Source: Candidatus Woesearchaeota archaeon (GTDB lineage Archaea > Nanobdellota > Nanobdellia > Woesearchaeales > GW2011-AR9). From it: a stretch of DNA of 64,000 nucleotides. The stretch spans positions 1,406,260 through 1,470,259 of the forward strand of contig JBAYIU010000001.1 of the NCBI GenBank assembly GCA_041665465.1, read 5' to 3'. Below the pieces are notes generated by a model. That model was not told the DNA's origin. It made no database searches and saw nothing but the letters and a program-made list of their open reading frames with translations. This document shows, in pieces, positions 2,082-49,060 of the stretch (position 1 is the stretch's first letter; each line of letters begins with the position of its first letter). The position numbers were made by a program, and so were the translations under genes.

Positions 2082-5000
2082 ATGAAGAAAAAGAAGAAGG
2101 TGGTTCGTAAAGTTCATTCTAAGGTACGTTCTAAAGTTGGTACTCAACCCTCTTCTCCTTTCTTAAGTGTTGGTTTACGTGGACTTGCTACTTTATTGGT
2201 AATTTTTGGGATACTTTTTTCATTACAACTTTACTCTTCAGAATCTTCCCTCCTTAAAGAAGGATGGACCTCTTTAAGTCAAGGATTTAATGGTATGGGG
2301 AACCTTCTTACCGGAGCAGCAGTTGGGGTAGAAGAGATGCAAGTCCAAGCGGGAGATTGTGCTGGAGCTTACACTGGCGGAAATTGGACTATTAATTCTT
2401 CTGTTAGTTGTAGTAATGATGTGATTAGTGTAGATGGTTTTGTGATAATTAGAAATGATTCTATCTCTCCTGAATTAGTGGTAAATAATTTCTCTTTAAC
2501 CACTACTGGGGTTTATGACTTAAGAGGTAATTCTACAAATATTGTTCTAGCTGTTCCAGATTTAGATTCATCTACTCCTTCTGCTTATACTAACGATTGG
2601 GATGCTAATTCTGGAAGAGAATTCCGTATTGCTATGAATGAATCCCAGAATAGAATAATGGTTTATGTTAACAATACTGACAACAGTAGTTTCCTTTATG
2701 AATTTGACTTAGATGATAACCCTAGCACCGGCGGGATTGTGGGTGCGGGGGATGATTTTGGGATAGGATATATTGGCGATTTTGGTGGGCCATTAATTGG
2801 ATGTTATAACTCTTCAGATCCGCAAAATAACCTAATTCTCTTATCTTGTGATAATAGTCCTCTTACCTGTGGAAATGTTGATGGCTACGATGGTACTTTC
2901 ATGGGCAACTTTACTGTTTATTGTAACAATTCCGGAAATGCATATGAAGTTGTGATTGATCTGACTAATGCTAGTGATGGGATATGGGAGACTAAACCTG
3001 TTTATGCTTTAGATCCGACAGATCAATCTTCTCCTTTTTATTACACTACTTTCCGGAATAACTCGGTTCTTGATTCGGGGATAAATGCTAGTGGTAATCT
3101 TGTCTTAAATAACGTTACTTTGAATCTTGAAAATAACTTTACTATCTCTGGAGGTAATCTTGATATCCAAAAATCAAATCTTACCTTTAGGCTTACTTCT
3201 AACGGAAGTGCTAATTTTATGATTAGTTCTGGAACTGCTTTTGCTAATATTAATCACAGTGCTTTTACTTCAAATAATTCTATCCTGAGATGGAAAGCGA
3301 GGATCACTGATGGAGATTACAATCTTACCAATAATGTTTTCTCATATGTGGGTTATGATAATGGAGATGGTATTGGTTATAATTACGAAGTTGGTTTTTA
3401 TTTTGCTTCTCCCTTGGGCGGATTAGTCTATAATAATACTTTCTCTAATTGCGGAACCATCGCGGAAGCTAGTTGTGTTTCTTTAGTTGATGGCGACGGG
3501 AATAGTAGAAATACTGGACTAAATTTCAGTTCCAACACCATTTTTAGTGAATCTGCGGGTCTTGGAACCTTTTATCTGTCTGATTATAGTAATACTTCTT
3601 ATACTAGTGGAGTTTTCATAGGGAATAATACTTTTTATGGTAGATTCTCAGTAGGTGGAAGAAACCACATTATCTCTGGGAACTATATAAATAAATCTCT
3701 CTGGTTATCTTCTGTTGAATATAATAATACTTTCATTAATAACGAAGTTAGAACGGAATTGGGGTTTGCTTCAATTAATGAGCAGAATACCTCTTATGGA
3801 TCTAGTATCATAATCTATTCCAATGGATATGGTAAGATGACCTGGAGCGGTAAAGATAACATTCAGATGGGTTTAGTCAGTGTAGATGAAACCTTTGGAT
3901 TAGGAAATTATTTCTATGTAGGGAACAATCTATTGGGTTTAAATGTTGGGAACGGTGCGGGAATAGATTTCTCTGTACTTAACACCACTGCTTCCTTAGA
4001 ATTTTATAGTTTGCTCTGGAATAATAGTGTCCAGTTATGTGTTAATAATAGTGGAACTTTATCTGGGTGTGTAGATTGTAATTCCGGGAATAATTGTACT
4101 TATAGTAATATTACTGGGATTATGTTAGCTAATGTTACTCATTTCAGTAATTATAGTACTAACGGAAGTATTAGTGTAGCAGAATCTCCTGCAGTGACTT
4201 ATCTAACTAACTTCACAGATACCTTTACCGGAACTACAATAAATGCATCAAGATATACTATTACTCAAAGTGGATTAAACGTTTCTCAGAGTGATAAGAT
4301 TATATTTAATGGTTCATATGAGGGTGCAACCTTTTTCACAAATTCATTTGTTGATACAAATCAATCATTTGTTATATCCATTAATGTAGCTAAATTTGAT
4401 CAGACAGAATATGTTGGTATTTTGGAGGACATTGGGCCTTTGGGTGGTGCTCCGGATGACAATGAAGTTGGAATTAGTATTGAAAATGACACCACTCGAA
4501 TTTTAATGTGTAAATTATTAAAAAATGATACTGGATACTTCATAGAAGCTAACGGTTTTACTCATCCCGCAGAAACAATGCAGGTAAACTATACTGAAGG
4601 CCAACTATTTAGCTTGAACTATTCTAATATTGATGGAAGGTATAGTTGTAATTATGCTGGTGAGATGGTTAGCAACACTAATAGTTCTGCTGCAGGGGCA
4701 GATTTTATTACTTTCGATGCTGAAGCAATTTCTCAAATGAATTTACAATTAGATGATTTAAACTTTTATTATGGGACATTAGTGGAAGAAGCTCCTGGAT
4801 CTTCTTATTGTGGTGGTGCTTACACTGGCGGAAATTGGAATATTAACTCTTCCATCAGTTGCAGTAATGAAGCGATTACTGTTAATGGGACTTTGACTGT
4901 TGCTGACAATTCTGTCTCTGCAAATGATGTGACTAACAATTTCACTTCTAATTCTGCTGCTAATTATAACCTTAGGGATAATTCTACAAATATTGTTCTA

Positions 5001-8000
5001 GCTGTTCCAGATTTAGATTCATCTACTCCTTCTGCTTATACTAACGATTGGGACAGTAATTCTAGTCATGAGTTCCGTATTGCGATGAATGAAACTCAGA
5101 ACCGATTAATCATTTTTACTAATAACACTAACAATCTTGATTTTGCTTATTCCCTTAATTTAGATGAGGGTCTTAGTGGAGGAGTCTTTGGTCCTGAATA
5201 TGGAGATGATTTCTTGGTGGGATACTCTGGTGGGCCTGCGATTGGATGTTATAACTCTAGTCTTTTAGACCTCAATGTCTTACCTTGTGATAGTAGTCCA
5301 GTTACTTGTGGAAATGTTTCTGGGTATGATAGTAATTACGATGGTAACTTTACTGTTTATTGTAACAATTCTGGGAATGCTTACGAGATAGTAATCGATC
5401 TAGCCAATACCGGAAACGGATTGTGGAAGAATAAACCCGTTTATGCTCTTGACTTAAACACCAGTGCTTTTTATTATACCACTTTCAGGAACAGTTCCAT
5501 TCTCCCGGTGGTTGCAGTGGGTAATTTAACCTTAAACAATGTTACTCTCAATCTGCAGAATAATCTTACTCTAAGTGGTGGTTATCTTAACATCTATGAT
5601 TCTAATGTGACGATGATGTTGACTGCTAATAATAGTGCAAATATGGATATAAGATCTTCTAATGTGAACTTAAGTGGGACGACTTTCTCTGCTAACAATA
5701 CTAATTTTAAATATATAATAGCAATACAGAACGGAAGTTACGCCAATAATGATTTTTCAGATTTGGCATTGTGGGTTTATCCTGGAACCGGCGGGGTATT
5801 CTCAAATAATGTGGTTTCCAATTGTGGTGGGACTCCAGCGTGTATCATGGCAGCCATAGGTTATAGCAACGGATTTAATTTTACGGGAAATAACATTACT
5901 GCCACTAGTGGTACTGCTTGGGCCACTATGGTTGCGGGAAACAATTACACTTTCAGTAATAATAATATTTATGGTAGCGCTTCACTCTTTTATGGGAATG
6001 TTAGCGTAAGTAATAATTTATTTAATCGTAGTTTATCATCAACAAAGGAGTATGGAATTGATATGATTATCTTTACCAATAATATTATCTTCCCCGGTAT
6101 TAATAGCCAATTGATGGGAGATTGGAACGATACCCTTCCTGACACCTTTATCTATTCAAATAACTATGGCAAGATCACTTGGAACCTTTCTAATTATACT
6201 ACTCCTGAACCTAATCCCAGTTCTTTTGGTTTGGGATATAATTTATACTTAAATAATAACATCGTTGGGGTAAATGCACAATTATCGCTTATTAACTTTA
6301 ATACCACTGCTTCAATTGAGTTTTATGGATTGCCTTGGAATAACAGTGTACAATTATGTAACAACATTAGTGGAACTTTATCTGGGTGTGTAGATTGTAA
6401 TTCCGGGAATAATTGTACTTATAGTAATATTACTGGAATAATGCTAGCTAATGTCACTCATTTCAGCAATTATAGTACTAATGGAAGTACTGGTGTAGCA
6501 GAAGTCGGAGTTAGTTATTGTAGCGGTGCTTACACTGGTGGAAATTGGAATGTTAGTTCTTCTATCAATTGTAGTAATGAGGTTATTCCCGTGAACGGAA
6601 TTATTACTGTTCAAGATCTTTCTGAAACTGCTGTGACCCAATTTGGGGCTTCTACTGGTGGAATTTATGATTTAAGAAATAACTCTACTGGTGTTTTTGA
6701 TACGGATTTAAGTTCTTCTACTCCTTCAGCTTATACTACTGATTGGGATTCTGATTCTAATCGAGTATTTAAGATTGCTATGAATGAATCTTCAGACACG
6801 ATTCAGGTATATGGAAGTTTACCTAACGTTACTGCTTTGTATAGTTTTGATTTAGATAATAATGCTGCTACTGGTACTTCTGTCGGTGGTTCTGGATCAT
6901 CAGGGATGGATCTTACTTTTGGATATCATGCTGATGCTGGTGGAGTGTTGATGGCTTGTTACAACTCTTCTGTGCCTGGTATGTACTTAACTTGGTTTGC
7001 CGCTAGTGGAAGCATTGTTTGTGGTCAAACCATGGATGTCGGGTATGATCGTAATTATACTATCACTTTTAATTCAACTGCCTCTGGAGGAGGGAACACT
7101 TTTGAGTTTATCATTAATTCTACGGGAAGTTGGACCGATAAGAGAGTGGAATTGATGGATGGGGGTAACGCCTATTATTATTATACTAAATTCAAAACAT
7201 CTGGAGCAGTGGCCGGAGGAAGGGGGAATTTAACTCTTAACAATGTTACCTTAACCTTATCTGGAAATCTTACTATTAATGGTATATTAAACGTTAATCG
7301 TTCTTTCTTATACTTTGGAAGTAATAATACTCTTTTCACTTCAAATATCGGAGCTAGCATATTAATCAATAATTCTAATGTTACTTCTAATGGTTCTATC
7401 CGTTATGGAATACGTTCCTTAGGGTCCGACTTTACTTTAGAGAACAGCTACTTGAATGATTTGGGAGCAGTTGTTTCCTCGATGACTTATCCCTTAAAGA
7501 TGGAAGGAACAGGAGGTATGATCAAAAATCTTTCTCTTGGAGCTAACCAAAAGATGTACGGGGTTCAGATTGCTGGATCAGGAATATCTGTCCTTAATAG
7601 TACCTTTTCTGGATCTGCTAACACCATTAATTTATTAGCGGGTAGTTATAATAATATTATCCGGGGGAATAATCTTTCTACTGGGATCAGTTATCTGAAT
7701 GGTGGAAGTTCTTATAACAATCTTATCGCTGAGAATACTATTGCCGGAGTGGGGAATATCTTGATTGGTCAAACTTCTCCAGCTCATTTACCTTATAACA
7801 ACACCTATCTGAATAATAATATTCAGCAGGTTATCACTACTTATGTTGTGAACTATACCAACTATTTCATCTACAATAATTCTTATGGGCAAATAAAATG
7901 GACCAAGAATAATTTCAGTTCTTCTTTTGGAGGAAATGCAGTATTGGTGTTGGACCAGACTGTGTTTGTTAGGTCGAACTTGTTAGGAGTAACCCCCAAT

Positions 8001-11000
8001 ATGTATATGGGGAACTTCAACACTACGGCGGAATTGACTTTTAGAAATCTTCTTTGGAACAATAGTGTACAGTTATGTGAGAATGTTAGTGGAACTTTAT
8101 CTGGATGTGTGGATTGTAACTCTAGTAATAGTTGTACTTATAGTAATATTACTGGGATTATGCTAGCTAATGTTACTCACTTCAGCAATTATAGTACTAA
8201 TGGAAGTATCAGTGTGGCAGGGGGTTTGATTAATAATATCTCTGTAGTGAAATATGCGGTTAATAGTACGGTTAATTGCGATTCAAATGTAACCAGTTAT
8301 GCCCTCTTTATTATTAACGTAACCAATAACAACGCTTACAACCTTACCAACATTATTGTTAATGACACTCCCTTATGTACAAATGGGTTATCCCTTCAAC
8401 AGTCTTTGCCGATATATACTAATTTCTCCTCTTGCAATTATGCTTCTTGGACCATTGCTAATCTTGGACCGGGTGAAACTTATAATATCACTCTAAATTT
8501 TAGTGTCAGCAGTTCTGGCAATTTAACTAACACTGTGCAGGTATGGAATGCAACCAGTCAGTTAGTGAACACTACCGGTAATATCACTGTTACTGGTAGT
8601 TGTGGTGGAGAAAGTCCGGGGTCAAATTTCCTTTCCAACTTTGTAGATACTTTTGATGGAGCGACTATTAATACCAGCGTATATAATGTAACCACTGTTG
8701 GAAACATCAGTATTTCTCAGAATAATAAATTGGTGATTAACGGTTCTAGTGGATATTCATTCGCTGCAACAAATAGCTACGTGAATGTAAGTAATAACTT
8801 TAGTGTTTCAGTAAAAGTAAGTAAGTTTGATAACACTACTTATGGCATTCTAGCAGGAGATCCTTATTCTAACTTTGGTGTGTTTATCAGTAGCTTTTCT
8901 GGCTCGTCTATCTCCTCTAACTTTGTTAGATGTAACATTGCTATGAATTCAAGTGGTTATTTCTTGAATGTTCCTAACCCTGGAAATACTGTTCCTGTAT
9001 CTTATGTTGAAAATGCTACTTTAACTCTGAATTATCATGCCAACAATTATACTTGTGATTGTACTTATGGTGGACAAACTATTTCCTGTGGTAATGAGAG
9101 TCTTCCTTCTACCGACTATTCTATCCTATTGTTCGGTGGCCTCATCTCTGTATCAAATTTACAATTTGATGATCTTAATTTGACGTATAATCCCGTGGCA
9201 GCAGCAGAAACTCCTGCAGGTCCAGGATTAACCATTTATAATAATGGTTTCTTTGAGAACTTTACTTCTTTGAATTCCACATTTTATAACAACACTCTCA
9301 TGATCTTTAGTAATCCTTCTATCATTAATGGGCAGTTGATGATGAATAAAACCACTTTTGAGGGTACTGGTCAAGATTACTTCTACACTACTGTAGATAA
9401 TGTTTCAACCAATAGTTCTTGGAACATTTCTGTTTGGATAAATTTAACTAACACTACTACTAATGCACAAGGAAGTTATTTGATAGAGGCAGGAATCTTG
9501 ATTTATAATAGAACTACCTACAGTAGTTCTTTAGCCTGTGAAGTAGGATATGGTAATGGTATTGGTTTAATATTAGCAAATTATAACAATACTCACAGTT
9601 CAGCACCAACGTATACCTCGGTCTCAAGGAGTTATGGTAACTTAACTTACAGTTACAACAACGCTACTGGAATTTTTAATTGTTCTTTAGATGATGGCAC
9701 TTCTGTTGCTGGATCAACTGGTTCTTTCGGTCCGGGTATGGGTATGGGTGTTGTTTCTCAATTGTCACAAATCGGGGCAGTTGCGCCCAACGGTTCTGTA
9801 ACTGCTTACTTTGATAATTTTAATTATACTTATGCGGTAGCAGCAACTCCTGCTGTGACTTACCTATCCAACTTCACGGATGATTTTGCCGGGACTACTC
9901 TCAATACCTCGAGATACACTCTAGATGTAGGGGGAACTTTGGGAATTGCTCAAAATGAGACCGTGATTGTCAATGGAACCGACACCGGTGCAGACAGTTT
10001 TGCGGGGACTTATACTAATTTGGGGGTTAACACTTCACGTTCATTCTATGTTTCTGTAGGGGTCCTAAACCTTACTAACACCAGCGCTATTACCAGTCCG
10101 AATGGTTACGCAGACGTTAGTCTTTCCTTGACTGATGTTGGTCTTGATTTTCTGAATTTTGCTGTCTGTAAGGTTAGGGTTAAACCGACAGGAATCTATT
10201 TGGAAGATGATAATGTTCAAAGTGTGCCCATATCTGCTACCAACGGTACTTTAGTGCTTTCTTTCAACGCTTCCAACCTGAATTATACCTGTGCTTTTGC
10301 TGGAGATAGTTTAACTAGTGCCAATCTCTCTGGTTTAGGTGGAAATAATAGTTTGGATCTTGTTGCCGAAGCACTTAATACTTCTGTCTGGGCAGAGATA
10401 GATAATCTAGAATTTGCTTATGGGGTTTATTCTGCTCCCGTAGAAACTCCTGCTGTGACTTACCTTTCTAACTTCACTGATAGTTTTACTGGAGTTACTA
10501 TCAACACTAGCAGATATATCTTAGATGAAGGCGGAAACTTATCTATGGCTCAGAATGGTACTTTGGTGGTCAATGGTACTGATAGTGGTTTTGATAGTTG
10601 GGAAGGAGTGTATACTAATTTAGGAGTTAACACTTCAGATTCTTTTTACATTTCAGTTGATGTTAATCTTACTAATACTAGTGCGATTACCAATGCGAGT
10701 GGTGCCACTCGTGCTTATATCTCACTCGCTGATGTGGCAACTGAACTGGATTTTGCGATGTGTGTAATTTACATAAGTCCAGCGGAGGTTGCTTTACAGG
10801 ATGGTGAGGGCGGTGGTCATGCTATGCCTCTATCTATAACCAATGGTACGCTGGTTATGGCTTTCAACGTTTCAAGTATGAATTATAGCTGTCAGTTTGC
10901 TGGACAAAATCTAACTCATGCTAATCTCTCTAGTCCAAGTGGTAATTATAGTTTGTTCTTAGAGTCTGATGCTTTGTATACCTCGACGTGGGCAGAGATG

Positions 11001-14000
11001 GATAACTTAGAGTTTGCCTATGGAGTTTATTCTGCTCCCGTAGCAGAAACTCCTGCTGTGACTTACCTATCCAACTTCAACGATACTTTTGATGGAGCGA
11101 CTATTAATACCAGTAGGTATACTGTTATTTCTGATGGGAATACTACCCTGTCTCAGAATAATAAAGTTATCATTAATGGTACTTCCGGTAGACCCATGAT
11201 GGGGATGAATAGCGCGGTAAACATCAGTAATAATTTCAGTGTTTCAGTCAAAGTAAGTAAATTTGACAATACCACTTATAGTATTATGGGAGCAGATCCT
11301 TATTCTTCTTTTGGGTTGTATATCGGTAACTTTTCTAATTCCAGTTATGATAAAGGCTTTGTTCGATGTAAACTTGCCATGAATTCTAGTGGTTATTTCT
11401 TGAATCATCCTAATTCCGGAAACACTGTTCCTGTCTCTTATGTAGAGAATGGAACTCTTACCTTGACATATTATGCTAATAATTATTCCAATAGTTGTAA
11501 TTATGATGGGAAAAATGTTTCTGGCATTAATGAGAGTTCTTCTTCTGGAGTATATTCTATCATTATGAATGCACAACCCCTTTCTTTAATCAACTTACAA
11601 TTTGATGACCTTAATTTGACGTATAATCCTGTAGCAGCAACTCCTGCTTCTGATAACTCTCCTAATGTTACTCTAGCCAATCCTGAAAATAATTATGTCA
11701 ACGATTCTGCGTCGAGAATTAATATCACTTTTGAATGTGATGCTACTGATGATTATCAACTAGTTAATGTCTCTTTATATTTAACTAATCCTGCTAATGC
11801 TTCTTTTGCTCTGAATCAAACCACCAATGTTGGTGGCACATCTAATTCAACTAGTTGGTTAGTAGAATTAGGTAATGGAAATTATACTTGGGGTTGTCTA
11901 GCATTCGATAATGCTTCTCAGTCCAGTTTCTCTACCCTCAATCACAGTATTCTAATAAACCATACTGTCTCGATATCTGATACCACTTATCCTACTGTAA
12001 CCCTAATCTCTCCTGCAAGCAGTTCTTACACAAACGCTAACAATAGTACCTTACCTTTTGTGTTCGGATACCAAGACAGTAATGATGCTACTGCTAACTG
12101 TACCTTATACCTGAACGGAGTAGCTAGAGGGAATAACGCTAGCACTAGAAACAACACTAACACTAATCTGTATTCTAGTACTACCTTCTCTGAAGGAAGT
12201 AATTCTTGGTACGTTAACTGTACTGATGCCGCTGGAAATACTAACGGAACTTCTACTTGGACTTTCATTGCTGATACTATTAATCCAACTGCTTCAATTA
12301 ATTCCATTAATACTCAGTATAGTGGTCAATGGACCAATACTCAAACTTTAAGTATTAATGCTACTGCTAGCGATGTTAACATTAATTATTGGAACCTTTC
12401 TGTATACAACAGTAATAGTTTAATTACTTCCAATCAGACTTCTGGAAGCAACCTTAATAATCTCGTTACTCTAAGTGTTTCTGCTGATGGAAATTATACT
12501 GTGAATTTAACCGTAACGGATCAAGTTAATAATTCCAACACTTCCACTTTCAATCTTCTAGTTGATACCTTTGCTCCTACTGTTAATTTGACTACTCCTC
12601 CTACAAATGTCTTAGTGTCCTTGGCATCAATAACTTCCACTTTCAATTTCACTGATGCTAGTTCTTCTAGCGCTAATTGCACTTTGTATGTGGGGGGGAT
12701 AGTTAAAGCAACTAACTCCTCTGTACTTAATTACACTAATACTGTGCTTACTGGTAGTTCTCTCTCTGAAGGGAACAATTCTTGGTATGTTAATTGTACT
12801 GATTTAGCAAGCAATACTGGAATCTCTGAAGTAAGAGTTATTCGAGTAGACACTACCACTCCCAGTGTCAGTGGTGCTAGTGTAAACGTAAGTCGAGCTA
12901 AATCTTCTACTTTGGTTGGAATCAATGTTACTGTAACCGATACCAATTTAGCCTGGGTTAAGGCTAATGGGATAAACATGAGTGCCAGTGGAAGCGACAT
13001 GTACAATCTTAGTGCAACTGCCTCTACTTTAGGATGTAGCGAAGGTACTTGTACTATTACTATAATTGCCAATGATTCTGCTAGAAATGCTAATAGTAGC
13101 GTTACTACCAGTTATGTGGTAGATGATACTGCTCCTGCACTGTTCTCTAACTCCACTTCTATCGCTACTGGATCAGTATACAATGCTTCATCTACTTATT
13201 ACTTCAATGTTACTTGGAATGAAACCGGAACCATTTCTAGTCCCTTATTAGAATTTAACAGTGCAAATTATACTATGACTACGGTTGGAAGCGGTGTTTA
13301 TTATTATACTTTTACCGATTTAGCAACTAGTACTTATTCTTACAAATTCATTGCTATAGATGATTCTGGGAATAGTAATGAGACTGCTAGTTATACTTAC
13401 GTTGTAGCTCAGGCAACTCCCTCTATCACCGCTTTACTTAATGGTACAGCTGCTAACCTAAGTGTCGCTTATCCCAATACCGTTAATGCTTCGGGAAGTA
13501 CCGACGCTGGAACCTTAGCTATTTATCGTAACGGGACATCTGTAACTAATGGGGCTGCATCTCTTTTAACTGTTGGATCTTATAGATATGATTTTAACGT
13601 TACTGGAAATCAGAATTATACTAACGCTTCTGCTACCTTGTATGCTACTGTGACTAAAGGTACTCCTGTCCTAACTTATTACTTAAATGGAAATACCACA
13701 AACTTAAGTGTTGTTTATCCTAATACCGTTAATGCTACTGCATCAACTACTGCAGGAACCTTAACCATTTACAGAAATGAAACTAATGTTACTAGTGAGA
13801 ATGGTGCAGCAACTTCTTTAGCTGTTGGATATTATCAATATGATTTCAATATAAGTGGTGGAGAGAATTATACTGATACTTCTACTACTTTGTATGCTAA
13901 TGTAACAATTGGAACTCCAACCTTGTCCCTGTACTTAAACGGAGCAGAAAACAATATGTCTGTAAACTACGGAACTAAAGTAAATGTTACTGGAACAGGT

Positions 14001-15179
14001 TCTGCATCTCAATTAAGTTATACCCTCTATCGTAACAATGTATCTACCCCTAACCCTGAAATTCTTTCCAATCTGTCTTACGGGACCAATTACACTTACC
14101 TCTTTAACACCAGCGGAAATGCCAATTACAGTGCTTCCTCGGTGTCTTACCAATTAGAAGTATTGTTGGGAGCGACTCAAGAATTAACCAATTCAACTGA
14201 TATTACTGTTACTAATACTACTACCGAAATTGTAATTCAGAATTCTAGTTTATCTCAAGTACGACTAAATTCTAGTATCGCTAGTACTACTCAAGTAAAT
14301 CTTTCTTTAGGTTTACTGATGGATCAGTCTACTGGAACTTTCAGTCTAGGAGAAAATAACTTCACCATGACTAGGGAAGTCTCTGGAGTGAACTATACTG
14401 TAGATATCCCGGCTAATACTAACTTGACTGGTGGAAGTGCTTGGGATGGTAAGTTTACTTTGCCCACTTTACCTGCTACTAGCGGATTTACTGCACCTTC
14501 TGGCAGTGTTAATTTAGTGATTGAAGTTGGTTCTACGGTGGAGATTAATCTCTCCGCTCCGGCAAAAATCGTTTTAAATGGAATGTCTGGAAAATCTGCA
14601 GGATGGTCCAGAAGTGGTACTATCACTGAGATAACCACTGTTTGTGATAATGCTACCTTGCCTACCAACATTAATACTACTAGTCCTAGAATCTGTTCTG
14701 TTGATAGTGGTAGTGATCTAATCGTTTGGACTTATCATTTCACTAACTTTGCTGCTTACACTCCCAGCGACGGATCTTCTAGTAGTTCTAGTAGCGGTGG
14801 AGGAAGTAGTAGTAGCAGCAGCACTCCCTCTTCTGCCCCAACAGAATACGCTACCGAGAACCCTGCTCCTAAATTGCCTTCAGTAACTAAAGCACCAACA
14901 GTGACTGCTCCGGTTGAAGTGCCAGTGGAAAATCCCGTTACGACTGTTCCTGAGACTGTTCCGGTTGAAGAGAATAAAGCTTTAGCGGGAATGGCTATCT
15001 CTGATCAACTTCGTTCAATCTTAACCGATTGGAGTAATTTATGGATTGGGTTAGTGGTGGTGGCTTTAATCGTTCTATCTCTATATCCTGTATTTAAGAG
15101 AGTTAAAAATAATCGTAACCGGGAAGAGATGCGAGAAGAATTAAGACAACAAGCGGCTAAGAAAATCAAACAGAAATAA
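2082..15179 (+). CDS. Giant (4365 aa) modular cell-surface protein: N-terminal signal/anchor helix, beta-helix-like Asn-rich repeats, lectin/LamG-like and Ig-like repeat modules, Ser/Thr/Pro-rich stalk, C-terminal TM helix with a basic cytoplasmic tail; saturated with N-x-S/T sequons (putative heavily N-glycosylated S-layer/adhesin-like protein)
   Basis: Single 13,098-nt ORF in AT-rich DNA (stop codons would be frequent by chance). AGGTG RBS 4 nt upstream. N-terminal 'LATLLVIFGILFSLQLY' helix. C-terminal 'SSSSSSSGGGSSSSSS...PTVTAPVEVPVENPVTTVPETVPV' stalk, then 'LWIGLVVVALIVLSLYPVF' and 'KRVKNNRNREEMREELRQQAAKKIKQK'. Modules recur 3-6 times. Confidence 0.88.
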   Translation: MKKKKKVVRKVHSKVRSKVGTQPSSPFLSVGLRGLATLLVIFGILFSLQLYSSESSLLKEGWTSLSQGFNGMGNLLTGAAVGVEEMQVQAGDCAGAYTGGNWTINSSVSCSNDVISVDGFVIIRNDSISPELVVNNFSLTTTGVYDLRGNSTNIVLAVPDLDSSTPSAYTNDWDANSGREFRIAMNESQNRIMVYVNNTDNSSFLYEFDLDDNPSTGGIVGAGDDFGIGYIGDFGGPLIGCYNSSDPQNNLILLSCDNSPLTCGNVDGYDGTFMGNFTVYCNNSGNAYEVVIDLTNASDGIWETKPVYALDPTDQSSPFYYTTFRNNSVLDSGINASGNLVLNNVTLNLENNFTISGGNLDIQKSNLTFRLTSNGSANFMISSGTAFANINHSAFTSNNSILRWKARITDGDYNLTNNVFSYVGYDNGDGIGYNYEVGFYFASPLGGLVYNNTFSNCGTIAEASCVSLVDGDGNSRNTGLNFSSNTIFSESAGLGTFYLSDYSNTSYTSGVFIGNNTFYGRFSVGGRNHIISGNYINKSLWLSSVEYNNTFINNEVRTELGFASINEQNTSYGSSIIIYSNGYGKMTWSGKDNIQMGLVSVDETFGLGNYFYVGNNLLGLNVGNGAGIDFSVLNTTASLEFYSLLWNNSVQLCVNNSGTLSGCVDCNSGNNCTYSNITGIMLANVTHFSNYSTNGSISVAESPAVTYLTNFTDTFTGTTINASRYTITQSGLNVSQSDKIIFNGSYEGATFFTNSFVDTNQSFVISINVAKFDQTEYVGILEDIGPLGGAPDDNEVGISIENDTTRILMCKLLKNDTGYFIEANGFTHPAETMQVNYTEGQLFSLNYSNIDGRYSCNYAGEMVSNTNSSAAGADFITFDAEAISQMNLQLDDLNFYYGTLVEEAPGSSYCGGAYTGGNWNINSSISCSNEAITVNGTLTVADNSVSANDVTNNFTSNSAANYNLRDNSTNIVLAVPDLDSSTPSAYTNDWDSNSSHEFRIAMNETQNRLIIFTNNTNNLDFAYSLNLDEGLSGGVFGPEYGDDFLVGYSGGPAIGCYNSSLLDLNVLPCDSSPVTCGNVSGYDSNYDGNFTVYCNNSGNAYEIVIDLANTGNGLWKNKPVYALDLNTSAFYYTTFRNSSILPVVAVGNLTLNNVTLNLQNNLTLSGGYLNIYDSNVTMMLTANNSANMDIRSSNVNLSGTTFSANNTNFKYIIAIQNGSYANNDFSDLALWVYPGTGGVFSNNVVSNCGGTPACIMAAIGYSNGFNFTGNNITATSGTAWATMVAGNNYTFSNNNIYGSASLFYGNVSVSNNLFNRSLSSTKEYGIDMIIFTNNIIFPGINSQLMGDWNDTLPDTFIYSNNYGKITWNLSNYTTPEPNPSSFGLGYNLYLNNNIVGVNAQLSLINFNTTASIEFYGLPWNNSVQLCNNISGTLSGCVDCNSGNNCTYSNITGIMLANVTHFSNYSTNGSTGVAEVGVSYCSGAYTGGNWNVSSSINCSNEVIPVNGIITVQDLSETAVTQFGASTGGIYDLRNNSTGVFDTDLSSSTPSAYTTDWDSDSNRVFKIAMNESSDTIQVYGSLPNVTALYSFDLDNNAATGTSVGGSGSSGMDLTFGYHADAGGVLMACYNSSVPGMYLTWFAASGSIVCGQTMDVGYDRNYTITFNSTASGGGNTFEFIINSTGSWTDKRVELMDGGNAYYYYTKFKTSGAVAGGRGNLTLNNVTLTLSGNLTINGILNVNRSFLYFGSNNTLFTSNIGASILINNSNVTSNGSIRYGIRSLGSDFTLENSYLNDLGAVVSSMTYPLKMEGTGGMIKNLSLGANQKMYGVQIAGSGISVLNSTFSGSANTINLLAGSYNNIIRGNNLSTGISYLNGGSSYNNLIAENTIAGVGNILIGQTSPAHLPYNNTYLNNNIQQVITTYVVNYTNYFIYNNSYGQIKWTKNNFSSSFGGNAVLVLDQTVFVRSNLLGVTPNMYMGNFNTTAELTFRNLLWNNSVQLCENVSGTLSGCVDCNSSNSCTYSNITGIMLANVTHFSNYSTNGSISVAGGLINNISVVKYAVNSTVNCDSNVTSYALFIINVTNNNAYNLTNIIVNDTPLCTNGLSLQQSLPIYTNFSSCNYASWTIANLGPGETYNITLNFSVSSSGNLTNTVQVWNATSQLVNTTGNITVTGSCGGESPGSNFLSNFVDTFDGATINTSVYNVTTVGNISISQNNKLVINGSSGYSFAATNSYVNVSNNFSVSVKVSKFDNTTYGILAGDPYSNFGVFISSFSGSSISSNFVRCNIAMNSSGYFLNVPNPGNTVPVSYVENATLTLNYHANNYTCDCTYGGQTISCGNESLPSTDYSILLFGGLISVSNLQFDDLNLTYNPVAAAETPAGPGLTIYNNGFFENFTSLNSTFYNNTLMIFSNPSIINGQLMMNKTTFEGTGQDYFYTTVDNVSTNSSWNISVWINLTNTTTNAQGSYLIEAGILIYNRTTYSSSLACEVGYGNGIGLILANYNNTHSSAPTYTSVSRSYGNLTYSYNNATGIFNCSLDDGTSVAGSTGSFGPGMGMGVVSQLSQIGAVAPNGSVTAYFDNFNYTYAVAATPAVTYLSNFTDDFAGTTLNTSRYTLDVGGTLGIAQNETVIVNGTDTGADSFAGTYTNLGVNTSRSFYVSVGVLNLTNTSAITSPNGYADVSLSLTDVGLDFLNFAVCKVRVKPTGIYLEDDNVQSVPISATNGTLVLSFNASNLNYTCAFAGDSLTSANLSGLGGNNSLDLVAEALNTSVWAEIDNLEFAYGVYSAPVETPAVTYLSNFTDSFTGVTINTSRYILDEGGNLSMAQNGTLVVNGTDSGFDSWEGVYTNLGVNTSDSFYISVDVNLTNTSAITNASGATRAYISLADVATELDFAMCVIYISPAEVALQDGEGGGHAMPLSITNGTLVMAFNVSSMNYSCQFAGQNLTHANLSSPSGNYSLFLESDALYTSTWAEMDNLEFAYGVYSAPVAETPAVTYLSNFNDTFDGATINTSRYTVISDGNTTLSQNNKVIINGTSGRPMMGMNSAVNISNNFSVSVKVSKFDNTTYSIMGADPYSSFGLYIGNFSNSSYDKGFVRCKLAMNSSGYFLNHPNSGNTVPVSYVENGTLTLTYYANNYSNSCNYDGKNVSGINESSSSGVYSIIMNAQPLSLINLQFDDLNLTYNPVAATPASDNSPNVTLANPENNYVNDSASRINITFECDATDDYQLVNVSLYLTNPANASFALNQTTNVGGTSNSTSWLVELGNGNYTWGCLAFDNASQSSFSTLNHSILINHTVSISDTTYPTVTLISPASSSYTNANNSTLPFVFGYQDSNDATANCTLYLNGVARGNNASTRNNTNTNLYSSTTFSEGSNSWYVNCTDAAGNTNGTSTWTFIADTINPTASINSINTQYSGQWTNTQTLSINATASDVNINYWNLSVYNSNSLITSNQTSGSNLNNLVTLSVSADGNYTVNLTVTDQVNNSNTSTFNLLVDTFAPTVNLTTPPTNVLVSLASITSTFNFTDASSSSANCTLYVGGIVKATNSSVLNYTNTVLTGSSLSEGNNSWYVNCTDLASNTGISEVRVIRVDTTTPSVSGASVNVSRAKSSTLVGINVTVTDTNLAWVKANGINMSASGSDMYNLSATASTLGCSEGTCTITIIANDSARNANSSVTTSYVVDDTAPALFSNSTSIATGSVYNASSTYYFNVTWNETGTISSPLLEFNSANYTMTTVGSGVYYYTFTDLATSTYSYKFIAIDDSGNSNETASYTYVVAQATPSITALLNGTAANLSVAYPNTVNASGSTDAGTLAIYRNGTSVTNGAASLLTVGSYRYDFNVTGNQNYTNASATLYATVTKGTPVLTYYLNGNTTNLSVVYPNTVNATASTTAGTLTIYRNETNVTSENGAATSLAVGYYQYDFNISGGENYTDTSTTLYANVTIGTPTLSLYLNGAENNMSVNYGTKVNVTGTGSASQLSYTLYRNNVSTPNPEILSNLSYGTNYTYLFNTSGNANYSASSVSYQLEVLLGATQELTNSTDITVTNTTTEIVIQNSSLSQVRLNSSIASTTQVNLSLGLLMDQSTGTFSLGENNFTMTREVSGVNYTVDIPANTNLTGGSAWDGKFTLPTLPATSGFTAPSGSVNLVIEVGSTVEINLSAPAKIVLNGMSGKSAGWSRSGTITEITTVCDNATLPTNINTTSPRICSVDSGSDLIVWTYHFTNFAAYTPSDGSSSSSSSGGGSSSSSSTPSSAPTEYATENPAPKLPSVTKAPTVTAPVEVPVENPVTTVPETVPVEENKALAGMAISDQLRSILTDWSNLWIGLVVVALIVLSLYPVFKRVKNNRNREEMREELRQQAAKKIKQK
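2529..2602 (+). repeat. 74-nt segment of the giant gene identical to 4980..5053 (codes LAVPDLDSSTPSAYTNDWD)
   Basis: Both copies read directly; perfect nucleotide identity. Confidence 0.85.
4015..4169 (+). repeat. About 155-nt near-identical intragenic module (WNNSVQLC..SGTLSGCVDCNSGNNCTYSNITGIMLANVTHFSNYSTNGS), copy 1 of 3; other copies about 6335..6489 and 8055..8216
   Basis: Near-identical nucleotide strings at three positions in the giant ORF. Confidence 0.8.
4980..5053 (+). repeat. Second copy of the 74-nt identical intragenic repeat (see 2529..2602)
   Basis: Direct comparison of the two segments. Confidence 0.85.
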
Positions 15180-23587: not shown

Positions 23588-24226
23588 ATGGTAAAAGAAT
23601 TTTTTATGAACTTGCTGAAAAGGCTATCGTTTAATCCTTTTGCTAAAAAGAGCCATATTAAGCTCGGTTTATACGGTCCGCCTAATGGTGGAAAGTCTAC
23701 TTTAGCTAACCGTATTTGTGAAGATTGGTTAGGAGAAAGTATGTCTAGCGTATCTCATATTCCTCATGAAACTCGAGAAATTGTGATCAAAGAGCAAGTT
23801 ACCATTAAGAATGGTAAAGGTAAAGAGTTAACTTTCTCTTTGGTCGATACTCCCGGAATCGCTACTAAAATTGATTATGAAGACTTTCTAAAAAAGGGAC
23901 TGAACAAAGAAGAATCTAAAAGACGAGCTAAAGAAGCGACTAAAGGGGTTATTGACTCCATTAAATGGTTAGATAAGATGGAATCGGTAATCGTAGTATT
24001 AGATGCTACCCAGGATCCTTATTCACAAGTTAACGTTACTATCTTGGGAAACTTACAAGCTCGAGACATTCCCGTATTGATTGTAGCAAATAAGGTTGAT
24101 CTAAAGAAGTCTAGTATTGACTCTATTCAATCAGCTTTTCCCCAGTACAAAGTTATCGGAATTTCCGCTAAATATGGTAAGAATATAGAAGACTTTTATG
24201 AGGAATTGTTCAAGTTTGCTAAGTAA
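23588..24226 (+). CDS. Small P-loop GTPase
   Basis: G1 'GPPNGGKST', G3 'DTPG', G4 'NKVD', G5 'SAK'. Confidence 0.8.
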   Translation: MVKEFFMNLLKRLSFNPFAKKSHIKLGLYGPPNGGKSTLANRICEDWLGESMSSVSHIPHETREIVIKEQVTIKNGKGKELTFSLVDTPGIATKIDYEDFLKKGLNKEESKRRAKEATKGVIDSIKWLDKMESVIVVLDATQDPYSQVNVTILGNLQARDIPVLIVANKVDLKKSSIDSIQSAFPQYKVIGISAKYGKNIEDFYEELFKFAK

Positions 24227-24314
24227 GATATATATTATAATCCCTATAATAAAAAATAAAGTTTAAAAACTATAGATGTTTCCTATACATAGAAAAGAGG
24301 TTTAGATAGTAAAA

Positions 24315-24692
24315 ATGGTTACGTTTCAATTTGTTCCTTATCAAGATATCGAGAATTTATCCTCCGCTAAACGGATTAATAAGCTCTTAAATATTGTTAA
24401 AGAGAATAAGATTGTTCTGATGGAAGGGCGTTTAAAGAAGGAAGAAGAAGCCGATTTAATTGAAATTACTATGGGCGAGATTACCCAGAAATTCAAAGGA
24501 ATTGAATTAAGTGTGATTTATCCAGATAGAAGTAAACAAGATCTGTTCCAGAAAGTTAAAGGGACCATGACTAGTGTGTTGCTAGGAAATCGTGAAGGCA
24601 TGACTATTATCGGGCCGGCGTCAATCGTTAAAAAGATTGAGAAGAACCCCAATAAGATTGAGTTATTCACGCGAGAAGCGCGTGGAGATTAA
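24315..24692 (+). CDS. Uncharacterised archaeal protein (DUF2073-like, usually encoded next to this GTPase)
   Basis: Conserved-neighbourhood recollection (GTPase, DUF2073, Zn-ribbon); no catalytic motif. Confidence 0.5.
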   Translation: MVTFQFVPYQDIENLSSAKRINKLLNIVKENKIVLMEGRLKKEEEADLIEITMGEITQKFKGIELSVIYPDRSKQDLFQKVKGTMTSVLLGNREGMTIIGPASIVKKIEKNPNKIELFTREARGD

Positions 24693-24748
24693 AACCTATA
24701 TAATCGTAAAGAGAAAAGGTTAAAAAGCCGTTGGGCTGATAAATATAT

Positions 24749-25147
24749 ATGCCACACCAATGCGTCCGATGTAATACCCTTTATCCGGAAGGGGCAGAAG
24801 AAATTCTTAAAGGATGTAAATGCGGAGCTCGATTATTTTTTTATATCAAACAGCAACACATTGATGAAGGTAAGAAACTTATCAGCAATTTAACTGCAGA
24901 AGATAAGAAAGCAATAGAAGAGGATGTTACCGAGATCTTAACCTTAAAATCCACTCCTGATGCTCCGGTAGTGTTAGATATCGAAGCAATTAGAATCTTA
25001 AAACCGGGGAAGTATGAATTAGACTTAGTACATTTGTTCAAGAAAGATCCACTGATAATTAAATTAGAAGAAGGAAAGTATGTGATTGATTTACCTCATT
25101 TGTTTAAAGAATCTTCTTTAGATAAGGATGAAGACAGTTCTCTTTAG
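24749..25147 (+). CDS. Zn-ribbon protein (DUF2072-like)
   Basis: N-terminal 'CVRCNTLY...CKCGARLF' C4 ribbon; third member of the conserved triad. Confidence 0.5.
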   Translation: MPHQCVRCNTLYPEGAEEILKGCKCGARLFFYIKQQHIDEGKKLISNLTAEDKKAIEEDVTEILTLKSTPDAPVVLDIEAIRILKPGKYELDLVHLFKKDPLIIKLEEGKYVIDLPHLFKESSLDKDEDSSL

Positions 25148-26836: not shown

Positions 26837-27349
26837 TTACAACTTACTCTTTACTGCTTTATCCGAGATAATCGCAGAATGGCCAGAAGGATCTTCAATA
26901 ATAATCTTTAACTTTTCTCTGCCTACTAAAGCTTTACCTAATTTCTTAACCAAATTTCTGCCTTTGTTCTTGGCATCTTCGTCTTCTTCTCCTTCAACAG
27001 AAGACTCAATCATTTTCTTGATTTTTTCTAATAATCCTTCTACATTAGTGATGAACCCTTCAGAAGCTACTCCTGGTTCCATAGTTATTACATGAGGAAT
27101 CTTTACTGTAGCTTCTCCGGACTTAACGATTCTGACGTTTAAGTCTTCTTCGCTTTCTACTTCAAAAGTATACTTAGCTGGTTCTTTCTCTTCTGCCGGC
27201 TCGATATCGGACTTACGGAAACCGCATCCTTCACATTCCATCGATAGAACATAAACTTTACCAAAGTAAGGTATATCTAATTCTTCCTCTTTCAAGGTTA
27301 ACTTCTTTTCTCCACATAAGTGGCATGGTTGTCCTTTAAGTTCTGACAT
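26837..27349 (-). CDS. ZPR1-type zinc-finger protein (COG1779-like)
   Basis: 'CHLCGEKK...' and 'MECEGCGFRK' paired CxxC, followed by ZPR1-like beta-rich domain. Confidence 0.65.
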   Translation of the reverse strand: MSELKGQPCHLCGEKKLTLKEEELDIPYFGKVYVLSMECEGCGFRKSDIEPAEEKEPAKYTFEVESEEDLNVRIVKSGEATVKIPHVITMEPGVASEGFITNVEGLLEKIKKMIESSVEGEEDEDAKNKGRNLVKKLGKALVGREKLKIIIEDPSGHSAIISDKAVKSKL

Positions 27350-27431
27350 AAGCTTAGCATAGATTTGGCATTTAAAAAGATTTCTATGAGGAAAGCTTAA
27401 GATTCAAATATCTTCTTTTAGATGAAGTAAG

Positions 27432-27440
27432 TTTTATAAA
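27432..27440 (+). promoter_or_regulatory. TATA box (TTTTATAAA) about 30 nt upstream of the tRNA
   Basis: Position and sequence. Confidence 0.5.
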
Positions 27441-27465
27441 TAGCATTTAAATTTATTCTCTTAAT

Positions 27466-27567
27466 GCACCGATGATATAACGGTTAGTATTACAGCCTTC
27501 CAAGCTGTCTATCGGGGTTCGAATGCAAGCAAGTCTAATTTGCTGCGAGAAAGTCCCCGTCGGTGCA
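27466..27567 (+). tRNA. tRNA-Gly (anticodon UCC) with a 30-nt non-canonical intron (27525..27554) between the T-loop and the 3' T-stem; no encoded CCA
   Basis: Acceptor GCACCGA/TCGGTGC. D-arm ATAT-AACGGTTA-GTAT. Anticodon stem ACAGC/GCTGT with loop CTTCCAA. T-stem CGGGG, loop TTCGAAT, then the 30-nt insert before CCCCG. T-tract follows. Confidence 0.7.
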
Positions 27568-27569
27568 GT

Positions 27570-27580
27570 TCTTTTTCCTT
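27570..27580 (+). terminator. T-rich tract after the tRNA (archaeal-type terminator)
   Basis: 'ctttttcctt' immediately 3' of the discriminator. Confidence 0.4.
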
Positions 27581-27654
27581 AATTTGTTTAATTCAGCATG
27601 TAGTTACTTCATTCTAATAATATTTATATAGCTCTTTCCCGCCCAGAGCTTAAA

Positions 27655-47992: not shown

Positions 47993-49060
47993 ATGTCCTT
48001 GTTTAAAGATATGTTGAAAGGTGGTGAGACCATTTTTAGAGATAGTGTTGTTCTTGACTATGATTATCAGCCTAAGATGATCAAGTACCGTGAGAATGAA
48101 CAGATGCGTTTCGCTACCGCTATCAGGCCTTTGCTGCAAGGCAATAATGGAAGAAACCTGTTTGTGTATGGTCCGCCAGGGGTGGGTAAAACTACTGCTT
48201 GCAAGCACGTGTTAAGAGAACTACAGGAAGAAACTGATGAAGTTCATACAGTTTACATCAATTGCTGGAAAGAAAATACCACTTTTAAGATTTATATCAA
48301 GATTTGTGAGGATTTAGGATACAAATTCATTCAAAGCAAGAAAACTTCTGAACTGTTTGGGATGATCAAACAGCACTTTAATAAGAAGCCGGTAGTGTTT
48401 GTGTTTGATGAGATCGATAAATTAGAGGATACTGATTTCTTGTACGGGATATTAGAAGATATTTATCGTAAGTCGATTATTGTTTTAACAAATTATCGAG
48501 ATACTTATTCTGAACTGGATGAACGTATCAGAAGCCGTTTCTCTCCAGAATTTCTTCCTTTTAATTCTTATACTGAACAAGAGATTGCTGGAATAATGAA
48601 AGAACGTTGTGAGTATGCTTTCATCCCGGATAGTTGGGACCAGGATGCTTTTATGGAAATTGTAGAAAAGTGTACCGAACTACAGGATGTACGAATTGGA
48701 TTATATATGATGCGAGAAGCAGGGAATCTGGCTGAAGAAAAGAGTTCTCGTAAAGTTACTCTTCCCCATGTAGCGGAAGCACTTAAAAAAGTAGATGAAT
48801 TCCATATCAAACCTAAAGAAGGGTTAGACGAAGAGTTGCAGATGATTCTGGACTTGGTAAGAAGTAATTCTGGAAAAAAGATTGGTGATGTGTATACTGC
48901 TTATGTAGAAAAAGGTGGAGAGATGAGTTATAAAAGTTTCCAGCGTCGCATTCTTAAATTGCAGGAAGGCCGTTTCTTAAACATGGAAAAGTTATCCAGT
49001 AAAGAAGGAAATACTAGTATTGTTAGTGTAAGCGCAGATAAGAAACTTAATGAGTTCTAA
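47993..49060 (+). CDS. orc1: Orc1/Cdc6 replication initiator
   Basis: Walker A 'GPPGVGKTT', Walker B 'VFVFDEID', sensor and winged-helix C-terminus. Confidence 0.85.
   Translation: MSLFKDMLKGGETIFRDSVVLDYDYQPKMIKYRENEQMRFATAIRPLLQGNNGRNLFVYGPPGVGKTTACKHVLRELQEETDEVHTVYINCWKENTTFKIYIKICEDLGYKFIQSKKTSELFGMIKQHFNKKPVVFVFDEIDKLEDTDFLYGILEDIYRKSIIVLTNYRDTYSELDERIRSRFSPEFLPFNSYTEQEIAGIMKERCEYAFIPDSWDQDAFMEIVEKCTELQDVRIGLYMMREAGNLAEEKSSRKVTLPHVAEALKKVDEFHIKPKEGLDEELQMILDLVRSNSGKKIGDVYTAYVEKGGEMSYKSFQRRILKLQEGRFLNMEKLSSKEGNTSIVSVSADKKLNEF

Follow-up and report, generated by a model that had tools for sequence, protein, structure and literature searches.

Does the segment at positions 27466-27567 of the DNA analysed here represent a working tRNA gene with an interrupted T arm and, if so, where does the interruption lie and how would it be removed? 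This 102-nt segment reads GCACCGATGATATAACGGTTAGTATTACAGCCTTCCAAGCTGTCTATCGGGGTTCGAA-TGCAAGCAAGTCTAATTTGCTGCGAGAAAG-TCCCCGTCGGTGCA on the forward strand and is part of a stretch of 64,000 nucleotides, hereafter designated as the window. Our analyses point to a functional, independently transcribed tRNA-Gly(UCC) gene, whose T-loop is split between tRNA positions 59 and 60 (59/60) by a 30-nt, protein-spliced intron of the bulge-helix-bulge (BHB) type, in a Woesearchaeota-type DPANN host. We give this reading a probability of about 0.88.

Removal of the 30 nt leaves a clean 72-nt cloverleaf with anticodon UCC, which ARAGORN calls as tRNA-Gly(tcc), in agreement with the identity and the intron length initially proposed in a first-pass annotation. 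In this spliced form, all four stems are intact, with 7 bp in the acceptor, 4 bp in the D, 5 bp in the anticodon and 5 bp in the T stem (CGGGG/CCCCG); the T-loop is TTCGAAT and the discriminator is A. The 5' exon (27466-27523, + strand) corresponds to tRNA positions 1-59 and comprises the 5' strand of the acceptor stem, the D arm, the anticodon arm (anticodon at 27499-27501), a 4-nt variable loop, the 5' strand of the T stem (27513-27517) and T-loop residues U54-A59. It was delineated from the ARAGORN cloverleaf and a partial Rfam match (27466-27519), its end being set by orthologous genes. The 3' exon (27554-27567, + strand), assigned from ARAGORN and the sequence, contains U60, the 3' strand of the T stem (CCCCG, 27555-27559), the 3' strand of the acceptor stem (UCGGUGC) and the discriminator A73. 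CCA is absent from the gene sequence.

The flanking signals noticed in the first-pass annotation, a TATA element of its own and a T-tract, are both present. A TATA-box-like element, TTTTATAAATA, can be read directly at 27432-27442 (+), from -34 to -24 relative to the mature 5' end, and is kept in orthologous genes at the same distance (aagttttataaata or tttaataaa), which is consistent with a putative role as promoter. Downstream, a tract of five T residues at 27572-27576 (+) was read from the sequence as a likely archaeal transcription stop, and T-rich trailers also occur in the orthologs. A scan for bacterial-type promoters and terminators revealed nothing on the 3' side of the tRNA, a result that is uninformative because the gene is archaeal.

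The archaeal lineage proposed from the sequence is confirmed by the genes surrounding this locus, which include ZPR1, a GTPase, OapB, OapC, archaeal-type ThrRS, SerRS, Elp3, L21e, RpoF, RpoL, primase and Cdc6. The ZPR1 gene (26837-27349, - strand) is divergent from the tRNA. Candidatus Woesearchaeota or Nanoarchaeota is the label borne both by the nearest ZPR1 proteins and by the GTDB genome records with an orthologous tRNA. The GC content of the window is 36%. Several other features of this region deserve mention. The genes for the GTPase and the origin-associated proteins OapB and OapC lie 2-4 kb from the tRNA (23588-25147, +). At a distance of 20 kb, there is also a Cdc6/Orc1-like AAA+ gene (47993-49060, +); a replication origin may be located nearby. 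Elsewhere, a single ORF of 4365 aa fills 13 kb (2082-15179, +).

By decoding GGA and GGG, tRNA-Gly(UCC) would be expected to be heavily used at 36% GC, GGA presumably being a frequent glycine codon. Yet this tRNA is invisible to ARAGORN and Rfam at default thresholds. ARAGORN detected no tRNA anywhere in the raw 64-kb window and nothing in 12 loci submitted unspliced. It misses the gene because only introns of the anticodon loop are modelled and the sole intron here is found in the T-loop; the ARAGORN check that had been suggested for this locus was passed by the spliced form and failed by the unspliced gene. Rfam searches of the window at gathering score were equally negative. When the thresholds were relaxed, the Rfam tRNA model matched 27466-27519 at 25.1 bits (cut-off 29); nothing else in the window resembled a tRNA, and the combination of ARAGORN and relaxed Rfam revealed no further hidden tRNA in these 64 kb. 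Weak Rfam matches to snoRNA and IRES families at 27392-27643 fell far below their cut-offs and were dismissed as chance. With standard predictors, the tRNA sets of DPANN archaea come out incomplete, and hidden disrupted tRNA genes have been suspected in these organisms (PMC5829648).

Orthologous genes were collected by scanning species-representative genomes with a pattern on the acceptor and D arm (GCACCGRTGRTATAAYGGYTAGTAT), which returned 8 loci, and JGI metagenomes with a looser pattern (GCRCCGRTRRTATAAYGGYTAGTAT), which returned 46. Duplicate removal left 45 distinct full-length genes, L033 being omitted as it was cut off in extraction. These comprise 44 genes with anticodon UCC and one with GCC, and all 45 were called tRNA-Gly once spliced in silico. 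Introns occupy position 59/60 in 22 of them, 53/54 in nine and the canonical 37/38 in 36, while five have none. Most T-arm introns are accompanied by one at 37/38: only three genes with a 59/60 intron (the window gene, L016 and L029) and one with a 53/54 intron (L051) lack it, and the 14 genes devoid of any T-arm intron include the five that are intron-free. Copies of the 30-nt intron itself were found neither elsewhere in the window nor in the 66 fetched loci. A regular-expression search of the fetched loci for 59/60 introns in other tRNAs returned only tRNA-Gly and AT-rich chance matches; this says little about other tRNAs, because the loci were centred on tRNA-Gly.

Relatives whose ZPR1 is 84-91% identical carry the same tRNA-Gly(UCC) divergent from ZPR1, with different sets of introns. 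One of them (L010) has a 15-nt intron at 37/38 only, another (L004) combines introns of 14 nt at 37/38 and of 29 nt at 53/54, and the third (L007) combines one of 14 nt at 37/38 with one of 22 nt at the T-loop site of the window gene. Likewise, one and the same mature sequence was seen with an intron at 37/38 only, with introns at 37/38 and 53/54 (six variants) and with introns at 37/38 and 59/60. Since identical mature tRNAs are associated with differing intron sets, the inserts are dispensable and fast-evolving next to constant exons, which is the behaviour of spliced introns.

Further observations were made in these relatives. A 247-aa ORF resembling LAGLIDADG_3 homing endonucleases occurs in L004 (1547-2290, +) and L005 (51-794, +); it stops exactly where the tRNA-Gly(UCC) gene with two introns has its 3' end (L004, 2291-2405, opposite strand), and it is absent at the matching place in the window, L007 and L010. 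The tRNA-Gly gene of L031 reaches 170 nt and contains a 49-nt tandem duplication within its 53/54 intron. The duplicated material comes from part of the anticodon loop and from the 37/38 intron, the 5' strand of the T stem and the start of the intron; either a genuine rearrangement or an error of assembly may account for it. Five loci (L007, L008, L009, L021 and L066) show a mismatch, A3.C70, in their acceptor stem (GCACCGG...CCGGCGC); it is probably not a sequencing error, because the same sequence is shared by all five, from at least three samples. Finally, the 37/38 introns of L015, L017, L022, L030, L038 and L056 have a common module, GAUAAAGGC-N4-GCCUUUAUGAUGA, forming an 8-bp hairpin between UGA and GAUGA that is reminiscent of a K-turn or C-box element.

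The collection of orthologs also bears on the exact position of the junction. The insert had first been placed at 27525-27554, between the T-loop and the T stem, that is, at 60/61. Its non-canonical location in the T arm is corroborated, but the orthologs position it inside the T-loop, at 59/60. In the window alone, the junction is ambiguous by one base, because the first intron base (27524) and the base preceding CCCCG (27554) are both U and the product is the same. A junction at 60/61, with U60 contributed by the 5' exon of the same gene, would indeed yield an identical mature tRNA from the window sequence, but it is contradicted by the other genes. Across the 22 orthologous 59/60 genes, the base following UUCGAA is A in nine, U in 11, G in one and C in one, whereas the base preceding the 3' strand of the T stem is always a pyrimidine (U in 21, C in one), like position 60 of the intron-less orthologs, which is always U or C. 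With 11 of 22 first intron bases differing from U, U60 must come from the 3' exon. The 60/61 register also provides no 4-bp central helix and would drop C61 of the T stem into the 3' bulge. We thus consider it very improbable. On this comparison of sequences, the ambiguity is resolved in favour of an intron, UGCAAGCAAGUCUAAUUUGCUGCGAGAAAG, predicted at 27524-27553 (+), one base 5' of the earlier placement, with exon 2 starting at 27554. As alternative BHB registers, a central helix placed on U55-A58 and a 60/61 junction were rejected, since they give wrong products or a broken T stem.

Whether the precursor can adopt a BHB-type fold at these junctions, a check suggested along with the first-pass annotation, was examined by folding. 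The 102-nt precursor has a free energy of -34.4 kcal/mol (z = -3.1 against dinucleotide shuffles) and keeps the acceptor, anticodon and T stems, with the insert extending the T arm. As with other 59/60 introns, the outer helix is the 5-bp T stem. The 5' strand of the central helix is provided by U54, U55, C56 and G57 (27518-27521, +), which face the intron 3' segment AGAA (27548-27551) in three pairs, U54-A, U55-A and C56-G, followed by a G57.A mismatch. The 5' splice site falls in a bulge made of A58, A59 and the first intron base U(i1) (27522-27524, +), with a predicted cut at 27523/27524; in the minimum free energy (MFE) structure, U(i1) is engaged in a U.G pair and the site sits in a 3x1 internal loop. 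On the 3' side, the bulge A, G and U60 (27552-27554, +) is unpaired in the MFE structure and has a predicted cut at 27553/27554. The remainder of the intron folds into a 10-bp internal hairpin, h' (27524-27547, +). The local MFE is -16.6 kcal/mol, and constraining the full BHB gives -16.0 kcal/mol, only 0.6 above it. The window gene does not form a strict hBHBh' motif, with two 3-nt bulges on opposite strands, exactly four Watson-Crick or G.U pairs and flanking helices; it does form a relaxed BHB, having at least one regular bulge and a central helix, and yielding the exact mature product.

These predicted cuts were derived from a simple rule, in which a 3-nt bulge on each strand is separated by a 4-bp helix and cleavage takes place 2 nt 3' of the helix. 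Cuts after 27523 and 27553 reproduce the 72-nt tRNA. The rule was checked on the 37/38 intron of L010, where C32-C35 pairs with GAAG between bulges CA|U and GC|A, and on the 53/54 intron of L004, where UCGG pairs with CUGA between bulges GG|A and AU|U; in both cases, the mature tRNA was exact.

Comparison of the 22 introns at 59/60 revealed a conserved 3' end in otherwise unrelated sequences of 18-85 nt, the intron body varying while the motif bases are conserved. The four bases facing the central helix are CGAA in 15 introns, UGAA in two, AGAA in two (those of the window and of L017) and either CGAU or CGAC in three, and the last two intron bases are AG (18/22) or UU (4/22). A (C/U/A)GAA+AG end was counted in 19 of the 22 and a CGA(U/C)+UU end in three. 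The 5' strand of the central helix is the invariant T-loop itself. All four central-helix pairs are standard in 17 of the 22. In unconstrained local folds, the T stem forms and the three bases of the 3' bulge stay unpaired in every case, and the UUCG central helix (at least three of the four pairs) is seen in 19; forcing the full BHB costs 0-1.8 kcal/mol across the set. As read from the sequences, 14 of the 22 also allow a pair between the first intron base and the residue located 5' of the central-helix strand, and one A-U to G-C double change supports this pair, so that the 5' bulge is often effectively 2 nt long. The G57.A variant of the window recurs in the unrelated 85-nt intron of L017, found at four loci, one of them a species-representative genome record, which suggests that it is tolerated. 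The window motif, as modelled, is a slightly relaxed BHB.

In archaea, tRNA splicing proceeds by EndA cutting both bulges and an RtcB-type ligase joining the exons, and the excised introns are commonly circularised (PMC4090602, PMC6379350). At the present locus, the data above establish the gene, its exact mature product, the BHB-type fold and the conserved site and 3' end of the intron, whereas we infer the cleavage, the ligation, the enzymes and the processing order as follows. In the precursor, the T stem would serve as outer helix and U54-G57 would pair with the AGAA of the intron 3' end, the remainder forming the 10-bp hairpin. EndA would cut each strand 2 nt 3' of the central helix, after A59 (27523) and after G27553, and an RtcB-type ligase would join A59 to U60, the junction linking ...GGGGUUCGAA to UCCCCGUCGGUGCA. 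Once freed by splicing, the T-loop would be able to fold and be modified, and CCA would be added.

Neither EndA nor RtcB was found in the window or the fetched loci; the window search consisted of Pfam analysis of 48 of the 53 non-overlapping ORFs of at least 90 aa and a tblastn search with the Methanocaldococcus jannaschii EndA. Using the alpha-type EndA of Nanoarchaeum equitans as query, many proteins of 161-221 aa were retrieved, some of them named 'tRNA-intron lyase' and assigned to Woesearchaeota or Nanoarchaeota. Nine of these were aligned (P0126, P0129, P0193, P0196, P0197, P0208, P0226, P0154 and P0186; 173-214 aa), seven labelled Woesearchaeota and two Nanoarchaeota or Nanoarchaeia. 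All nine are single-unit enzymes with invariant catalytic Tyr, His and Lys; in seven, the N terminus is extended by a Lys/Glu-rich segment that reaches about 40 aa at most. The lysine-rich insertion that precedes the catalytic His in N. equitans is absent from all nine, and the lineage of these insertion-less EndAs nonetheless holds introns at 53/54 and 59/60. This N. equitans insertion has been linked to broad specificity and the cleavage of relaxed motifs (PMC3239211), and the ability to cleave such motifs is known solely from enzymes that bear a loop (PMC5829648). A strict BHB is cleaved irrespective of its location. In most 59/60 introns, the BHB is strict or nearly so, as would be expected with a fairly strict enzyme. 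The relaxed-specificity endonuclease initially invoked to explain the T-arm position, although plausible, is therefore left unsupported by both the introns and the nine EndAs.

These data have to be weighed against two other readings of the locus, which concern the fate of the insert. The gene might be a decaying, unspliceable copy, a pseudogene whose imperfect BHB remains uncut by a strict endonuclease while another gene supplies tRNA-Gly(UCC). The mismatch in the central helix and the irregular 5' bulge are compatible with such a reading, and the EndAs of relatives do look like plain alpha-type enzymes without known specificity loops; but the exon stems are all intact, the promoter and the T-tract are conserved, and so is the syntenic place beside ZPR1. 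The AGAA variant, moreover, is shared with the independent L017 intron at four loci, and a decaying copy would be at odds with the heavy use of GGA expected in a genome of 36% GC and with the lack of any other tRNA in the 64 kb. Decay is therefore quite unlikely.

Even less credible is an insert that is retained as an enlarged T arm or removed by group I or group II self-splicing. Nothing specific argues for either, apart from the occurrence of group I introns in archaea, Woesearchaeota included. Group I and II introns are defined by a core of hundreds of nucleotides and a covariance-model match, whereas 30 nt are far too short for either and no Rfam family matched the insert even at E <= 10. 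Retention would sequester the conserved U54-G57 residues. Both retention and self-splicing are difficult to reconcile with inserts of anywhere between 18 and 85 nt in genes of identical mature sequence and with copies that are intron-free. A BHB-type intron removed by proteins hence remains the preferred reading.

Position 59/60, as well as 53/54 and 56/57, belongs to the published non-canonical intron sites of archaea (PMC4090602). With the introns described in crenarchaea, in particular Thermoproteales, and in Nanoarchaeota (Yoshihisa 2014, PMC4090602; Fujishima and Kanai 2014, PMC4033280), the window intron shares the site, the small size and a BHB fold at the junctions, and its orthologs similarly pair a T-loop intron with a canonical one at 37/38 and display a fast turnover between close relatives. 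It differs from the crenarchaeal 59/60 introns by its Woesearchaeota-type DPANN host and the G.A mismatch in its central helix, and the single-unit, alpha-like EndA of the lineage differs from that of N. equitans by the lack of a C-terminal lysine-rich insertion. The canonical 37/38 intron, found in 36 of the 45 orthologs and not in the window gene, would depend on the same enzyme, chemistry and cut rule. Split and permuted tRNAs, as known in N. equitans, Caldivirga and Thermofilum (PMC4090602, PMC3978253), also rely on BHB-like junctions and EndA; in contrast, the exons of the window gene are contiguous and collinear, in normal order, and form one transcription unit with one promoter.

Closer to the present host, Kaneta et al. 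(2018) included a Woesearchaeota MAG in their tRNA predictions, noted that disrupted tRNA genes are more numerous in DPANN and associated this disruption with an 'L3' loop (PMC5829648). The window gene belongs to the same superphylum as these disrupted tRNAs and as ARMAN-2 with its epsilon2 EndA (PMC3239211), but the EndAs of the nine relatives have no N. equitans-type insertion at the place of this loop. The literature searched contained no description of this 59/60 intron of tRNA-Gly(UCC) or of the three-site polymorphism. The intron type itself is already documented in archaea, and the present case is a new example, ordinary in kind.

A by-product of the ortholog survey is an unannotated structured RNA of about 65-70 nt in Woesearchaeota, with the core GUUUAGCUUAGAAAAUCC-NNNN-GGUU-hairpin-GUAAAAC. 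This conserved RNA makes up eight of the 59/60 introns of tRNA-Gly(UCC) and also occurs as 13 stand-alone copies outside tRNA genes; it is BHB-flanked in both settings. The stand-alone copies are enclosed by a stem of 9-12 bp together with a 4-bp helix and 3-nt bulges, and most of them lie behind a conserved promoter-like box, GGTAAGAAA...TTATATA. A covariance model built from 10 copies had no match in the window but 21 among the fetched loci; these include L016 2589-2662(+), L060 4773-4846(-), L043 7609-7685(+), L045 372-455(-), L029 797-875(-), L065 3388-3467(+) and L059 8966-9045(+), in addition to 14 more. The proposed pairing is well supported: 96.8% of its cells hold standard pairs, as compared with 28-53% when the partners are slid, 12 of the 17 pairs have changes on both sides (1-5 of 17 when slid), and none of 500 shuffles was as good as the observed alignment.

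The 4-nt hairpin loop of this RNA is always self-complementary (AAUU, AGCU, AUAU or UGCA), and since these four bases cannot pair internally, this points to RNA dimerisation or to a palindrome at the DNA level. The family had no match in Rfam, its core pattern had none in IMG/VR viral contigs, and the literature searched contained no description of it. The possibility of a permuted tRNA was dismissed, as ARAGORN did not call it. The tRNA splicing endonuclease may mature this RNA, whether it is expressed from a gene of its own or travels as the cargo of a tRNA intron; the closest known parallel is the euryarchaeal tRNA-Trp intron, which carries a C/D sRNA. The 30-nt intron of the window has only the GAAAG 3' end in common with the RNA family described here. 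It is tempting, though speculative and in our view rather doubtful, to regard position 59/60 of Woesearchaeal tRNA-Gly(UCC) as a recurrent docking site for BHB-bounded RNAs, with EndA also maturing a new, probably circular, small RNA and the window intron being a cargo-less or degenerate relative born from the same process of gain and loss.

For the window itself, the main value of these results is a correction of its annotation, and the known mechanism of archaeal tRNA splicing is left unchanged. They are of modest interest for the dynamics of introns in DPANN archaea. With three sites (37/38, 53/54 and 59/60) subjected to gain and loss within one DPANN clade, the tRNA-Gly genes of these organisms offer a compact natural data set on intron turnover, which could reveal how strict a BHB has to be for an EndA without the lysine-rich insertion of N. 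equitans.
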